Shown piece by piece: positions 8,212-16,753 of a stretch of DNA of 64,000 nt. The first letter of the stretch is position 1; every line of letters starts with the position of its first letter. The DNA is from Puniceicoccaceae bacterium (GTDB lineage Bacteria > Verrucomicrobiota > Verrucomicrobiia > Opitutales > Oceanipulchritudinaceae). Both the position numbers and the translations under genes were made by a program. Location: positions 256,001 to 320,000 of the forward strand of contig JBFOMH010000005.1 of the NCBI GenBank assembly GCA_040830765.1. Reading direction: 5' to 3'. The notes under the pieces are model-generated. The model was not told the DNA's origin. It saw only the letters and a list, made by a program, of their open reading frames with translations, and searched no databases.

Positions 8212-9599
8212 AACTCCGCATTGCCCGGAGTTCGGGCAAAGGGGATGACGTCCCGGATGTTGGCCACACCCGTGACAAACATCAGCATTCGCTCAAATCC
8301 AAGCCCGAAGCCGGAGTGCGGGGCCGTGCCATAGCGTCGCAAATCCCGGTACCACCAATACTCCTCCTTCGACAAGTCGTGGTGCTCGAGTGCGGCATCC
8401 AGGCGCTCCAGACGCTCCTCACGCTGACTGCCCCCGATTATTTCACCTATTCCCGGAACCAGCACGTCCATGGCGGCAACGGTCTTGTCATCATCATTCT
8501 GGCGCATGTAGAAGGGCTTGATCTCCTTCGGGTAATTGAAAACGGTGACCGGGCGCTGAAAGTGGGTTTCCGTCAGCCAGCGCTCATGCTCACTCTGGAG
8601 ATTGGCCCCATATTCCACCGGGTAGTCGAATTTGACATCCGCTGTTTTCAGCAACTCTACCGCATCGGTATAACTGATGCGCTCAAAGGGCCGTTCCAGC
8701 ACGAACCGCAGGCGTTCATGAAGGCCCTTGTCGACGAATTTGCCGAACATCTCCAGGTCCTCCTGACAATGCTCAAGGATATCCCCGATGAGGTACTTGA
8801 TGAAATCCTCCGCCAAGCCCATGTCGCCTTGCAAATCGCAAAAGGCCATTTCCGGCTCAATCATCCAGAACTCGCTGGCATGACGGGAAGTGTTGGAATT
8901 TTCCGCCCGAAAAGTGGGGCCGAAGGTATAGACATTGCTGTGCGATAAGGCGAATATCTCCGCCTCCAGCTGGCCACTGACCGTCAAGTAGGTTGGCCGG
9001 CCGAAGAAATCCTTTTCATAATCAATGTTCCCGTCCTCGTCCCGTGGCGGATTGCCCGGTTCCAAGGTGGAAACGCGGAACATTTCACCGGCCCCTTCAC
9101 AGTCGCTCGCCGTGATCAACGGCGTGTGCACATAAACGAATCCACGTTCCTGAAAGAACTGGTGCACCGCATAGGAGAGCCGTGAACGAACCCGGAATAC
9201 CGCCCCAAACAGGTTTGCCCGAGGCCGTAGGTGCGCGATCTCACGCATGTACTCCAGCGAGTGACGCTTCTTCTGCAGGGGATAACTCTCCTCCGCCTGT
9301 CCGATCAGCTCCAGCTCAGTGGCCTTGATCTCCCAGCGTTGGCCCTTCCCCTGGCTCTCCACAAGCTCCCCGGCCATCCGCACAGCTGAACCAGTCGTGA
9401 AGGCGTGGATGTTATCATACCCGGGACACCCTTCATCGGCAATTACCTGCAAATTCGCCAGGGAACTGCCGTCGTTTAATTCAATAAAGGAAAAGCCCTT
9501 CGAATCCCGCCGGGTCCGTACCCAGCCATACACTTCTACCGCATCGATCGGTCCGTCGGATTCCAGGGCTTCTTTTACTCTCAGTCTTTGCAAGCTCAT
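8208..9599 (-). CDS. asnS: Asparagine--tRNA ligase
   Basis: OB-fold 'GWVRTRR', 'YLTVSGQL', '[21 protein letters not shown]', 'GFGLGFER'. Confidence 0.98.
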
Positions 9600-9641
9600 A
9601 AGTTGCTCCTACTCCTACATCCCCGGCAGCTTCCATAAAGC

Positions 9642-9684
9642 AAAAAAACAAAAAGGCCCTGCTCCCCAAAGGGAACAGGACCTT
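9642..9684 (-). terminator. Intrinsic terminator closing the large ncRNA unit
   Basis: Minus strand reads AAGGUCCUGUUCCC-UUUG-GGGAGCAGGGCCUU followed by a U-rich tail. Confidence 0.85.
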
Positions 9685-10553
9685 AAAATGTGGGACGGCG
9701 CTCGCCACACGCTCTTTCCCGGTTGCTGACATTTGGCGCTCGTGATTCTTCATCATGGCTGCCAGCTCCCCGACGCTATTCTCCGAGGCACTTCGGAGTC
9801 CCGGCCTCGTAGCAGGGCCGTAGATGGAATTACTCCCATCTAATTCAAGAGTGAGGCCTCTCAGCATGGTCACCCCACAGGTGCTACCTGCGGACCTTCC
9901 TTACCCGCCGAGGATATCGCTGTAATCCGGTATCCTCCGCGATTCTTCCCAAGGTCGGCTCCACTGTCTCCAGCGGACGTTTGCCTTGAGTTACGGGTCT
10001 GACCTCTTACCTCTCGGGGATGCGTTCAGTTTACAGGCAGTCGACTCGGTTTTTCGAGCCCACTGCTTCTCGAAGGAAACCTGCGGCTGTTGTCATGTAC
10101 TCGGCCGCCTGTTTCCCCGCTTACCAAGACGTTTTCGCTGCACCGACGTTTTTCCGGTCGCTTATGGTGAGATTAGCCCTCACCCGCCTCGCCAAACGGA
10201 CGAACTGCACGGTAACATCCCTTGACCTTCCAGGTCACCGCGTTGAAGTCTCCCAGGGCACAACCCCTTCGGATCCTTCTAACTCAACCTGCTGGCATTG
10301 TGCTTGGCCTCGCTCTCGCTCGGCCGCCAGCCGATCGCCGGTCGTGTGCTTTCACAATTCAGGGCTGTGTGACCAACCCTGGCACCGACGGTGAAATTTG
10401 CCTCACTTCCTGGAGCCTTTAGTGGACGTCTCCTCAGAGCCGCCCGACTCCCCTCCATGAGGAGCCAGATTCGTTCGATAAACCTGACTGTTCCCCGGTT
10501 ACCCGGGATTATCCTGGGGCTTTCGAGTTGAATGCCCGTTCTTTCAAAGAACT
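9685..10553 (-). ncRNA. Large (~870 nt) highly structured non-coding RNA, candidate MISL-class RNA or a new giant RNA
   Basis: No credible ORF. Consecutive hairpins include 9781-9798, 9802-9820, 9821-9842 (GUAA loop), 9875-9893, 9910-9937, 9960-9977 (GAGA loop), 10075-10116, 10166-10184, 10360-10381 and 10494-10507 (GUAA loop). Has its own promoter and terminator. Family identity is inferred only from size and likely phylum. Confidence 0.8.
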
Positions 10554-10559
10554 GACCAT

Positions 10560-10589
10560 ATTGTGCTCTTCAGGGGTCCCGACTGTCAA
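10560..10589 (-). promoter_or_regulatory. Sigma70-type promoter for the large ncRNA
   Basis: Minus strand TTGACA (10589-10584), 18-nt spacer, CACAAT (10565-10560); boxA-like GTTCTTTGAAA follows a few nt downstream. Confidence 0.65.
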
Positions 10590-10602
10590 CCCTAAAACAT
10601 TC

Positions 10603-10752
10603 GTTATCAACGTTTTGTGAACAATCAAAGGTTATTGACACTCGCTTTTTACAACCTGTTCGTAAGTCCCTCATTTGGATGGCGATACACACCGGAGCCA
10701 ATGTGAATAACTTCGCTTTTTCTGTGAGTTAGTGTGAACAACTCGGGAATAA
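10603..10752. promoter_or_regulatory. Cluster of DnaA-box-like 9-mers plus an IHF consensus site
   Basis: TGTGAATAA at 10702-10710 is a perfect TTWTNCACA match on the minus strand. One-mismatch boxes: TGTGAACAA at 10616 and 10733, TTATTGACA at 10632. TATCAACGTTTTG at 10605-10617 matches WATCAANNNNTTR. Confidence 0.5.
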
Positions 10753-10828
10753 CGAATTTCCGGAAATTTTTTTTTGAAAAAAAACGCTCCTGCTGGCGGA
10801 AAAAAGTGAGTGAAAAACCGCTACAAGC

Positions 10829-11824
10829 TCAGGGATTGGCCTCGAGGTCCTGATCGAGAGCCTCCCGGATGGCATTGACCTCAATGGCAATGGCCTGAAC
10901 GAGCTGTATTTGCTCATAGAAAGAGGCTTCCTGTTCCGGATTCTGAAAGAGGACCCGCTGTTCACGGGGATTGTAGGACCAAGTTCCCCAGGCCTCACGG
11001 AGGACGTTGAGGGCGGCAATGGCGGAGCCAAGCAGGCGAACCTCGAGCTGCCGCAGGTCATAGACGCGGGATCGCTCCCAGAATTGGAGCACGCGTTCCA
11101 TTTCGGCAATGGCGATACGGTCGGCCGGGGGTTGCAGGTCCAGAGACTCGATTGAGCGCGTATAAGTATCCTCGAAGGACTCGATGAACTGGGTGAAGGC
11201 CCGGGTCTGTTCATAGAGCACCCTGTGGGCAGCCAATTCGACTTCCAGTTGGTCGATGGTCCGAAACCGAATCCACGATTCGGGGCCTTTGGTGGGATTG
11301 GCCTCCATGGCGGCGGCATAGGCTTCGGACTGGGCATCCAAGGCCTCGCGCATTTGCTGGTCCAGCTGCCGCAGGGCATCCAAGGTATCATACGGGATTC
11401 TGCCCTCATACTGGACAAAACGGTCCGTCTGGCCCCGCTGCTCCCGCTCGGCCCTCTCGGCGGCCCTTCGTTCCTCCTCGGCCTTGGCGAGGCGAAGCCG
11501 TTGCAATCTCAACTGTTCACGGGAGTCCTGTATGGCCTCCTGCCGGGCGCTATCCCGGTCGGCCTGGTTCTCGCGGGCAAGTATCAATGGAAAGATTAGA
11601 AGACAGCCCGCCAATCCGACAATCGCCCAAGAGATGAGGACCGGATCCCGGGCAAAAAGCCAGCGGGCGATCAGATTCAGGCAAATCCCCGTGGCGGTAA
11701 TCGCCACTGGCCAGACCAGATGAAAGAGAGTCCCCTGCAGCCATGGGACATCGGGATACCATCCGGTCAGCAGGTAGTATCCCAGCCCCATCAAGACGCA
11801 AACAATTGCCAGAATTAGCCTCAT
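10829..11824 (-). CDS. Hypothetical membrane protein (3 N-terminal TM helices + coiled/helical domain)
   Basis: 331-aa ORF whose start overlaps the tatD stop (ATGA coupling). Confidence 0.75.
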   Translation of the reverse strand: MRLILAIVCVLMGLGYYLLTGWYPDVPWLQGTLFHLVWPVAITATGICLNLIARWLFARDPVLISWAIVGLAGCLLIFPLILARENQADRDSARQEAIQDSREQLRLQRLRLAKAEEERRAAERAEREQRGQTDRFVQYEGRIPYDTLDALRQLDQQMREALDAQSEAYAAAMEANPTKGPESWIRFRTIDQLEVELAAHRVLYEQTRAFTQFIESFEDTYTRSIESLDLQPPADRIAIAEMERVLQFWERSRVYDLRQLEVRLLGSAIAALNVLREAWGTWSYNPREQRVLFQNPEQEASFYEQIQLVQAIAIEVNAIREALDQDLEANP

Positions 11825-15241: not shown

Positions 15242-16753
15242 CTACGGGTCAGAGGATTTATCCGGTACTTTAATCCGGACATAAACATCAAAATAACCAA
15301 ATCGCTCCTTTTTGTAGGTTTGTTGGAGGTATTCGAATAGAAGTTCCTTGTACTCCCCTTCAGTCGGACCGATGCCAACTGCCTCCACTCCGGAACTTTC
15401 CATGGAGCGAATGAATCCGGAGATTCCTCCCGGCCACTGCGCCATGATCTTGCGGTCGATGCCAGCAATGATGAAGCCGTACGGGTTGACATTGCTGCGA
15501 TTGGACAAGACCAGCAATTCCGGAAGGCCGATGGACGCGATTTGCGTTTCCCCGGGGAAGCGCTCAGCCACTTGCTCGGCCGAAACACGCTGAGCCTTCA
15601 AACCGTCCTCGGAAGTGCCATGATAGAGCATCACTGAGGAAAGCGCCAGAAGGGCCGCCACGGTCGCACCGACCCGTTTGGGCGTCAGGCCGGCCAAGCC
15701 CTGAAGGGAACAAACGCCCTCCGAGAGTTTCCAGAAGAGCCCGGCCATCCCAATGGCCATGTAAGGAAGAAATGGATACAAGTCTGCCGCTCCCTGAAAA
15801 TCGAGAAAAGTCCACAGGAAAACGAACGGCAGGGTCCCGACAATTGGCAACCAAACCGGCCATTCCTGTACACGGTGGACAGGATGGCGGTAAATCACCG
15901 CTGACTGAAGAAGCAGGTAAAACAAGCCCATGATTGCCGGTACAGCCATCAGGGTGTAGCCCTTGAAAAGCGACTCCACCGGCGCTAGCAGGTGTTCAAT
16001 GACATCAAATGGCGGACGGTCCAGGTAAGTCAGGTTGAAGACGACACTGCCATCGATCAGGGCCACCAGGGCGCCTTTGGATATAAAGTAACCGAACAGA
16101 ACCAGGCAGGGGACGAATACGCCAATGGCCGCGTAGCCGAGTCCTCGAAACCGCAATTCCCGGTCCTCCTTATGGATAAGTAACGGCGCCAGCAGGGCAA
16201 AGAGGACATAAACCACCCCAGGTTGCCAGACCCAGGTCGCCAGGGCTGCGAAAAACCCGGCCCATCCCCAGCGTTGCCGGGCAGCGAAGTAAAGGAATGC
16301 CACCTCAAAGAGGACGAAGGGCGTCTTGGCCCGCGGCCCGGACACGGCTTCCCGGCCAAAACTCCAGAAGCCCGTAAAGGCCATCGCGCCAATCAGCCCA
16401 GCAAGCGCATTGCGATAAAGGAGACGACCCAGAAGGTAAATGAATCCGCCTGCCAGTCCGCTCATGACCCACCATCCGGCGCGCACCGCGAGGACATCCT
16501 CAAGTCCGGAGAACCGCCCCATGGAAACAAAGAGACCACTCAGGATGGGCGTCAGTGGTGTCTTGTGATCAAAAATGGATAGGTAAGGGGCAACCCCATC
16601 GGCAAACTGCTGGCCGGCATAGAGGTATATGGCATCATCCCGGTAGAGCCAGCCCTCAAATCCGTAGACAGCGTAAATCCCGAGACTGATTGCCGTCGCC
16701 AGTAAAAACCCGAATACGGGCGAGCCGGTGATGCGCTGTCCCGATTCCCCCAT
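15242..16753 (-). CDS. Polytopic membrane glycosyltransferase (GT-C, ArnT/PMT-like)
   Basis: Many TM helices; 'RDDAIY' and 'PY..IFDHKTP' in the first loop. Confidence 0.7.
   Translation of the reverse strand: MGESGQRITGSPVFGFLLATAISLGIYAVYGFEGWLYRDDAIYLYAGQQFADGVAPYLSIFDHKTPLTPILSGLFVSMGRFSGLEDVLAVRAGWWVMSGLAGGFIYLLGRLLYRNALAGLIGAMAFTGFWSFGREAVSGPRAKTPFVLFEVAFLYFAARQRWGWAGFFAALATWVWQPGVVYVLFALLAPLLIHKEDRELRFRGLGYAAIGVFVPCLVLFGYFISKGALVALIDGSVVFNLTYLDRPPFDVIEHLLAPVESLFKGYTLMAVPAIMGLFYLLLQSAVIYRHPVHRVQEWPVWLPIVGTLPFVFLWTFLDFQGAADLYPFLPYMAIGMAGLFWKLSEGVCSLQGLAGLTPKRVGATVAALLALSSVMLYHGTSEDGLKAQRVSAEQVAERFPGETQIASIGLPELLVLSNRSNVNPYGFIIAGIDRKIMAQWPGGISGFIRSMESSGVEAVGIGPTEGEYKELLFEYLQQTYKKERFGYFDVYVRIKVPDKSSDP

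Follow-up and report, generated by a model that had tools for sequence, protein, structure and literature searches.

A divergent MISL RNA gene (RF03079) beside asnS in a Puniceicoccaceae bacterium

OLE RNA is a large structured RNA of Firmicutes that works as a ribonucleoprotein, and its gene adjoins that of its partner, oapA. ROOL and GOLLD RNAs are often borne by phages or plasmids and are patchily distributed. ROOL, GOLLD and OLE have all been reported as RNA-only homo-oligomeric assemblies, and we know of no catalysis by any of the three. MISL RNA (Rfam RF03079), a large folded RNA of Verrucomicrobia to which Rfam gives the type 'Gene; sRNA', reportedly comes from a study of 224 candidate RNAs, presumably from its supplement. 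The main text of the paper introducing those candidates does not mention MISL (PMC5737381). In the literature searched, MISL is named only in the Ribonanza preprint, as a chemical-mapping example; searches for RF03079, for the MISL motif and for MISL together with GOLLD found nothing. Here we analyse a MISL locus in a 64,000-nt stretch of DNA, referred to as the window, from a Puniceicoccaceae bacterium (assembly GCA_040830765.1, contig JBFOMH010000005.1, positions 256,001 to 320,000). A preliminary description had seen in it a stand-alone giant RNA of about 0.9 kb, either of the MISL class or undescribed.

A single Rfam family matches anywhere in the window at gathering thresholds: MISL, on the minus strand from 10514 to 9697, with 338.4 bits and an E-value of 1.8e-100 (the gathering score of the family is 274.6 bits). 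The match is untruncated, spanning positions 1-751 of the 751 in the model, and the core so delimited measures 818 nt. A permissive cmscan search of 9400-10900 recovered the identical match and no Rfam family besides MISL at E < 0.1, its sole other match being a chance one to a eukaryotic small nucleolar RNA model (19.4 bits against a gathering score of 75, E 0.17). In that search GOLLD, ROOL, OLE, RNase P, transfer-messenger RNA (tmRNA), 6S, group I and II introns and T-box gave no match at E up to 1, and ARAGORN found no transfer RNA or tmRNA in the window. The conserved blocks of the family (5′ GGAUAAU, GAGAGNUAAGAGG..AGACCCGUA, GCCUCACUC, the CCUGCUAYGAG loop, GCGUCGGGGAGC and GGGAAAGAGCG) all occur in the window sequence as aligned by cmscan and show little or no variation across the 65-sequence alignment described below. 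The best overall explanation, in which we place high confidence, is a MISL RNA gene of divergent form from a relative of Oceanipulchritudo (Opitutia, Verrucomicrobiota). The locus is an autonomous, non-coding, highly structured minus-strand transcription unit of the MISL family. Because the match is full-length and no other family competes, the alternative of an undescribed family is excluded, and of the two options in the preliminary description the MISL class alone stands. The comparison with Rfam that it had proposed thus confirms the RNA and removes its novelty at the family level. The call of a giant RNA was correct and the RNA is real, yet any Rfam annotation would label it MISL, so that no new family is added to those already known; the remaining interest lies in the unassigned function of MISL and in a regulatory lead.

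Relatives were collected by scanning a genome collection for the exact invariant core motif of the RNA, which returned at least 119 stretches, at least 80 of them with up to 5 kb of flank. The matches listed are nearly all metagenome-assembled genomes (MAGs) labelled Opitutaceae, Opitutales, Opitutia, Verrucomicrobiales, Chthoniobacteraceae or Verrucomicrobia. Fourteen loci picked across this range were scanned with Rfam, and all 14 carry full-length MISL at 337-589 bits. The nearest relative among the matches listed is L019, from an uncultured Opitutales MAG, with 82% identity over 940 nt; it and the window are the lowest scorers of the loci scanned and form a divergent subgroup with expansions of 44 nt (18 in the model) and 20 nt. 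The window AsnRS is 83% identical to that of L046, an Oceanipulchritudo MAG, and the NCBI taxonomy places Oceanipulchritudo in Puniceicoccales, Opitutia; with the nearest MISL and flanking genes found in L019 and L046, the host falls in Verrucomicrobiota, as expected for MISL. The window RNA therefore shares with MISL RNA a full-length covariance-model match, the same helices and conserved blocks, a stand-alone intergenic gene and the host phylum. It differs in its score, which at 338 bits is one of the lowest for a true member here (13 other loci reach 367-589, and only L019 is similar), in its lineage-specific expansions (44 nt in place of 18, and a 20-nt insertion in the next helix), and in a predicted transcript that reaches past the model on both sides, with a conserved structured 5′ segment of about 38 nt and with the 3′ terminator. 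The core motif also occurs on L016, an 858-bp scaffold of a Stutzerimonas assembly; among the loci fetched, its closest relatives come from Verrucomicrobia and are only some 72% identical, and it is probably a contaminant contig from an unsampled verrucomicrobium.

The RNA read from the minus strand between 10560 and 9642 folds at -402.8 kcal/mol (z = -9.24 against 20 shuffles), compared with -336.1 kcal/mol (z = -4.42) for the plus strand of the same interval. The earlier picture of a hairpin-rich RNA transcribed leftward is supported. An alignment of the window with 64 loci (65 sequences) was made with MAFFT, without structural information, after 72 full-length loci had been reduced at 95% identity (L014, L026, L028, L037, L047, L056 and L059 were dropped). 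The Rfam consensus structure was placed on it via the window row, replacing an RNAalifold structure that was only partly sensible. The window sequence forms standard pairs (G-C, A-U or G-U) at 157 of the 169 consensus pairs mapped onto it, leaving 12 that are non-standard. Pairing holds in 72.3% of cells over the whole alignment; shuffles reach 62.7%, and sliding the partners by 1-3 columns gives 37-46%. Both sides change in 134 of the 169 pairs, and the covariation score of 0.283 compares with 0.06-0.12 in the slid controls. The MISL core holds about 30 helices with covarying pairs. Homologues with covarying helices, the absence of which would have refuted the preliminary description, were found.

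An invariant part of the core, with unpaired nucleotides next to it, is formed by the long-range helices 15 and 16, in which GAG/GAGG pairs with CCUC/CUC: their seven pairs are 100% paired in the 65 sequences, and six of the seven never vary. Since the same motif served as the search pattern, the invariance of the core motif is partly a product of selection; that of its long-range pairing partner is not. All three hairpins that had been singled out for their GNRA tetraloops are present in the window, and the loop is conserved by the family in the first and third of them. In the CCCGG hairpin, whose helix is 93% paired, the loop is GNRA in 57 of 65 sequences (GCGA 29, GCAA 12, GUGA 9, GUAA 6, GAGA 1). 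The hairpin of UAGAUGGGA and UUCCAUCUA has a GNRA loop, in five variants, in all 65, while nine of its nine pairs change on both sides and 88.4% of cells are paired. Such loops, kept as GNRA through several variants, fit conserved tertiary contacts. The UCCGCUG hairpin, helix 18, is itself well conserved as a helix (6/6 pairs changing on both sides, 98.7% paired), but its GAGA is the single GNRA loop among the 65 sequences, the usual loop being CAAAA.

A sigma-70-type promoter and an intrinsic terminator enclose the core, both at the places given in the preliminary description. The promoter, TTGACA-18-CACAAT at 10589-10560, has 10 of 12 consensus matches in a pattern scan; between 9000 and 11500 there are two promoter-like sites, against 0.9 +/- 1.0 in shuffles. 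In the relatives, read by eye and uncounted, a -10-like hexamer (CAYNNT or TAAATT) stands 7-8 nt ahead of the 5′ hairpin, with a -35-like hexamer further upstream; in low-GC lineages TTGACA or TTGACT follows an A/T-rich tract. At the other end, the strong terminator at 9684-9642 has a 14-pair stem (8 G-C), a 4-nt loop and then TTTGTTTTTT. Terminator-like sites as a class are not enriched in 9000-11500 (4, against 3.3 +/- 1.6 in shuffles), and this one is by far the longest. In 69 of 75 sequences the corresponding place, at a median of +362 from the core motif, holds a strong hairpin with a T-run, the stem sequence differing among lineages; three of the 69 are doubtful (L003, L072, L077), and the six misses show a G+C-rich hairpin with a weak T tract. 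From its predicted start near 10552 to the end of the T-run near 9645, the transcript would measure about 908 nt, a small correction to the preliminary description. The extent of the unit is also marked in L027 and L059, two contigs of one long-read MAG, whose MISL copies share 99.5% identity across a stretch of just 1171 nt (-781 to +389 relative to the core motif), beyond which the flanks are unrelated. As the two copies share only the RNA unit, they mark out what moves as a gene; they stem either from a recent duplication of the entire unit or from two strains that ended up in one bin.

Between promoter and Rfam model lies a further conserved segment. A near-invariant 15-mer, GTTCYTTGAWAGAAC, stands ahead of the start of the model in 71 of 73 sequences, and the window matches it exactly at 10552-10538. 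Of the occurrences of its palindrome GTTC-N7-GAAC in 703 kb, 65 fall at this position and 13 elsewhere. Because it follows the -10-like hexamer by 7-8 nt, the 15-mer should form the first nucleotides of the RNA, where it can fold into a hairpin of 4-6 bp, P0a (97.9% paired). Its sequence hardly varies, so that it may equally well be read as an RNA hairpin or as a DNA operator at +1. The adjoining helix P0b does vary: 5/5 pairs change on both sides in the family, and 92.8% of cells are paired, against 18-50% in slid controls. The window has a short version of it, and the window row is mostly gapped at those alignment columns. The 5′ extension as a whole is 95% paired, against the same 18-50%. 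The functional RNA may accordingly be larger than the Rfam model, with a covarying 5′ domain that starts exactly at the predicted transcription start; this extension and an array of 9-mers upstream of it may both go beyond what Rfam describes.

These 9-mers resemble the DnaA box. TTRTTCACA has only three matches in the window, all in the orientation of the RNA and all upstream of its promoter, against 0.51 expected; 0 of 100 shuffles reach three. In L019 the boxes stand at the same three offsets from the 5′ hairpin (-189, -158 and -72), and distant lineages carry one to four amid unrelated flanking sequence, generally about -40 to -200 from the start and with variation concentrated at positions 3 and 5. 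Counted on either strand in the 230 nt before the 5′ hairpin, TT[ACG]TNCACA occurs 93 times in 17,020 nt (5.46 per kb) and in 58 of 74 loci, compared with 10 times in 635,200 nt (0.016 per kb) elsewhere in the same loci, an approximately 340-fold enrichment upstream. The 9-mers are clustered in the window (3 against 0.51) and enriched over background in the family (93 against 10). Its variants are TTATTCACA (39), TTGTTCACA (12), TTCTGCACA (12), TTCTTCACA (9), TTCTCCACA (7), TTATCCACA (5) and others, and the loci that carry boxes include L003, L005, L010, L015, L019, L020, L027, L034, L038, L041, L042, L053, L068, L072, L075 and L077. Opitutaceae mostly carry the TTCTNCACA variant in the opposite orientation. 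The simplest reading of the array, judged from the letters of the motif, is that of regulatory sites for DnaA or another factor. In Opitutaceae loci (e.g. L006, L012, L045 and L066) a strongly conserved block, GGTGAAGAAGTTGTGNAGAACAAAGNCTTCA, abuts the -35 region at -62 to -37 from the 5′ hairpin and holds the TTCTNCACA box variant on its opposite strand; low-GC lineages have an A/T-rich, UP-element-like tract in place of the block. Readings of conserved motifs as a LexA box, a CRP half-site or an 11-nt tetraloop receptor were set aside by eye, the second half-site or the partner strand being missing.

Table 1. Positions of the features of the MISL locus within the window
Feature	Position	Strand	Remarks
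MISL RNA core	9697..10514	-	Rfam RF03079 positions 1-751 of 751; 157/169 pairs standard; covariation in 65 sequences
Invariant core GAGAGGUAAGAGGUCAGACCCGUA	9992..10015	-	GAG...GAGG pairs long range with CCUC-A-CUC within ~9865-9845
Hairpin CCCGG-GUAA-CCGGG	10494..10507	-	Family-conserved GNRA loop; helix 93% paired
Hairpin UCCGCU(G)-GAGA-(C)AGUGGA	9960..9977	-	Helix 18 conserved; GNRA loop window-specific
Hairpin UAGAUGGGA-GUAA-UUCCAUCUA	9821..9842	-	Family-conserved GNRA loop
Predicted sigma-70-type promoter	10560..10589	-	-35 TTGACA 10589-10584, 18-nt spacer, -10 CACAAT 10565-10560
5′-terminal element GTTCTTTGAAAGAAC (hairpin P0a; GTTC-N7-GAAC palindrome)	10538..10552	-	At predicted start, outside Rfam model
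Second 5′ helix P0b (here GGGC...GCCC)	10517..10537	-	Closes segment from 5′ hairpin to Rfam model start
Predicted intrinsic terminator	9642..9684	-	14-bp stem (9684..9653), 4-nt loop, T-run
DnaA-box-like 9-mer TTGTTCACA, distal	10733..10741	-	TTRTTCACA match upstream of promoter
DnaA-box-like 9-mer TTATTCACA, middle	10702..10710	-	TTRTTCACA match
DnaA-box-like 9-mer TTGTTCACA, proximal	10616..10624	-	3′ end 26 nt upstream of -35 hexamer

We propose that the RNA would be made as a stable, probably abundant molecule of about 0.9 kb, that the DnaA-box-like 9-mers found ahead of the promoter in most lineages probably control its transcription, and that the RNA would act in trans and not on asnS. 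Its tertiary fold would be compact, the GNRA loops being docked into helices that surround the invariant GAGAG-UAAGAGG/CCUCACUC core; this core would be the working site, either as a platform on which a protein partner binds or as a centre for catalysis or ligand binding. By analogy we lean towards a ribonucleoprotein scaffold of the housekeeping type, as OLE RNA may serve to illustrate, in preference to a ribozyme or an RNA-only multimer. In this reading MISL is like OLE RNA in being chromosomal, vertically inherited and ornate, about 0.6-0.9 kb long, and in having unpaired nucleotides that are invariant as well as a promoter and a terminator of its own; it does not belong to that family, since the OLE model has no match here and MISL lacks a protein neighbour conserved across lineages. 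With ROOL and GOLLD it shares the size class, the many helices and a biochemical function that is likewise unassigned, but neither model matches here, and MISL is chromosomal and syntenic within clades, so that it belongs to neither. A more specific idea, which we put forward only tentatively, is that MISL is a giant RNA coupled to replication or the cell cycle, its promoter being governed across the phylum by DnaA or by another reader of TTATNCACA-type boxes. The one to four TTATNCACA-like 9-mers upstream of MISL recall DnaA-regulated promoters and DnaA-box clusters outside oriC (e.g. the dnaA promoter and the clusters of B. subtilis); at MISL the link to DnaA is one of sequence resemblance, and in Opitutaceae the box is mostly a reversed TTCTNCACA. 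If DnaA were indeed the reader, the RNA would act in a process tied to initiation or replication stress, and not in translation or general housekeeping. The array would offer a regulatory hypothesis that is concrete, and replication status as the condition in which to seek a phenotype; the full transcription unit with its conserved 5′ extension could make MISL function testable, and the invariant long-range core is the place to mutate.

Several points weigh against this interpretation. The pairing values observed in the alignment were reached by 0 of 500 shuffles, yet the sequences are related and not independent, and the shuffle control ignores phylogeny. The Rfam helices 4, 6, 7, 19, 20 and 25 are paired in only 36-46% of cells, which we attribute to MAFFT misalignment of variable regions mapped via the divergent window row. 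The homologue sample, having one exact core motif as its key, is biased to Opitutaceae and to conserved cores. The strict DnaA-box-like 9-mer is missing in 16 of the 74 loci, and its resemblance is to TTATNCACA, which we take to be the DnaA-box consensus and from which that of Verrucomicrobiota may differ; a search by title and abstract found no paper on a Verrucomicrobiota DnaA-box consensus. Expression, RNA ends and abundance are predictions, and 'scaffold', 'ribozyme' and 'multimer' are analogies drawn from other large RNAs.

The surroundings of the gene vary with lineage. The order tatD-hypothetical gene-MISL-asnS-uvrA is common only to the window and L019 among the loci listed, where MISL-asnS adjacency is also found in L046. 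Clustering of flanking open reading frames (ORFs) placed an HrpB-like helicase upstream on the opposite strand in 38 loci and a TypA/BipA-like GTPase downstream on the same strand in 41, at 446-4413 nt and sometimes with other genes between. A further 28 loci have mixed neighbours, among them photolyase, LexA, a nucleoside transporter, a DtxR-type repressor, AhpC, a sigma-70 factor, LepA and PriA. A protein partner conserved by synteny was accordingly rejected: in view of the unrelated neighbours elsewhere, the hrpB/typA association is treated as clade inheritance. Translation-related genes recur beside MISL in differing contexts (asnS, typA/bipA, lepA and a short class-I Glu/Gln-type synthetase homologue), an excess that is weak and may be due to chance.

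In the window the MISL gene lies 45 nt upstream of asnS, on the same strand and with a terminator at its end, which would suit a giant cis-acting leader of asnS (an attenuator or riboswitch-like element whose terminator is a regulated switch). Such a leader would also suit the translation-related genes nearby, namely asnS (window, L019, L046), typA/bipA (41 loci), lepA (L031) and the class-I Glu/Gln-type synthetase fragment of L068, L072 and L077. Yet the downstream gene is not conserved across lineages, typA lies at its varying distance behind intervening genes, and the locus coordinates, as we read them, make the synthetase of L068, L072 and L077 convergent and place lepA upstream. No T-box or other leader family matched in the cmscan search of 9400-10900, Rfam types MISL as a gene, and the copy duplicated within one MAG is the RNA unit alone. 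Because the neighbouring genes differ between lineages, the RNA is not an asnS leader, a reading we hold to be highly improbable; its independence of asnS, as first described, is upheld by the terminator in 69 of 75 sequences, by the lineage-dependent downstream genes and by the duplicated unit. We give practically no credence to a degenerate protein-coding gene or to the RNA of a mobile element (intron, retron or transposon-nuclease guide RNA). Long stop-free stretches occur on both strands of the RNA region, one of 124 aa on the plus (10020-10394) and one of 59 aa on the minus, and might suggest coding, but such stretches are expected at 57% G+C. Open frames of at least 60 codons cover every alignment column in most sequences, being common at this G+C; their count is therefore uninformative, and coding potential was judged by frameshifting indels and Pfam. 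None of the six internal ORFs has a Pfam match, and indels of 1 and 2 nt relative to L019, which is 82% identical, disrupt both long internal ORFs, which speaks against coding. In addition, substitutions track base pairs, no intron, retron or guide-RNA family matched in 9400-10900, no transposase, reverse transcriptase or nuclease is found among the neighbours in the window and the 28 loci, and the position of the locus is syntenic within clades. That the region lies in or beside the chromosomal origin, the RNA being an origin-associated transcript, is very unlikely too, if slightly less so than a leader. Three DnaA-box-like 9-mers within 130 nt, beside an A/T-rich tract at about 10750-10790, would suit an origin, as would rsmG (gidB) at a distance of 3 kb, a gene often origin-proximal in other bacteria, and the divergence of MISL and the hrpB-like gene of Opitutaceae from the box region. 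GC skew, however, is negative over all 64 kb without a switch at 10.7 kb, the window genes on either side of the RNA share a strand, and NCBIfam matches with E up to 1e-40 among 40 window ORFs include no dnaA, dnaN or parAB. Among 48 loci only seven have an origin-like skew (negative upstream, positive downstream), and 35 are negative on both sides. An oriC reading of the box cluster is thus ruled out by GC skew and gene content.

Rivals to a ribonucleoprotein scaffold concern what the RNA does. That it is a ribozyme, with the invariant GAGAG-UAAGAGG/CCUCACUC helix and the adjacent AGACCCGUA as an active site like the invariant helices of RNase P or group II introns, seems to us unlikely, though less so than any of the rival readings of the preceding paragraph. 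It would suit a large, complex RNA with two conserved GNRA loops, and helices 15 and 16, fully paired with six of seven pairs never varying, show more constraint than pairing needs. Large, ornate bacterial RNAs are, moreover, frequently catalytic, according to PMC5737381. On the other side, the cmscan search of 9400-10900 gave no similarity to a known ribozyme family, there is no substrate or cleavage-site signature, and the core motif was the search key, so that its invariance is partly selected. OLE, ROOL and GOLLD are as ornate, and to our knowledge catalysis is not attributed to them. An RNA-only homo-oligomeric assembly, a cage or ring such as those reported for ROOL, GOLLD and OLE, strikes us as more doubtful than a ribozyme. 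MISL is of similar size, its conserved GNRA loops could make intermolecular contacts, and no protein-coding neighbour is conserved across the phylum in the loci examined; against this, the idea is an argument from analogy to ROOL and GOLLD, and our literature search found no paper treating MISL with GOLLD. A ribonucleoprotein scaffold remains the reading towards which we lean.

On the strand of the RNA, GC skew over 4-5 kb on each side is negative on both sides in 35 of the 48 loci, and the window itself has the opposite sign. Either a usual location of MISL on the lagging strand or local gene-strand effects could account for this.

The gene occupies a gap of 1229 nt (9600-10828), the largest stretch of the window without a credible ORF. 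Greedy tiling of ORFs of at least 100 aa leaves just two further gaps above 350 nt (361 and 379 nt), and the 124-aa antisense ORF inside the RNA is discounted because Pfam has no match for it and indels interrupt it in the nearest relative; the gap is therefore the only large one, as the preliminary description had it. The placement between asnS and a tatD operon likewise agrees with NCBIfam: asnS matches equivalog NF003037 at 664 bits (cut-off 414) and tatD matches TIGR00010 at 218.8 bits (cut-off 206), with a 331-aa ORF separating tatD from the RNA. The genes flanking the RNA on both sides lie on one strand. Farther away, between trxB and the next gene, a 503-aa ORF (15242-16753, minus strand) has no Pfam or NCBIfam match. 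The 331-aa ORF (10829-11824, minus strand) likewise lacks any match in Pfam or NCBIfam, and it has a 4-nt overlap with the tatD stop; it is only 52% identical to its counterpart in L019, against 82-83% for TatD and AsnRS, and its product is a fast-evolving unknown protein.

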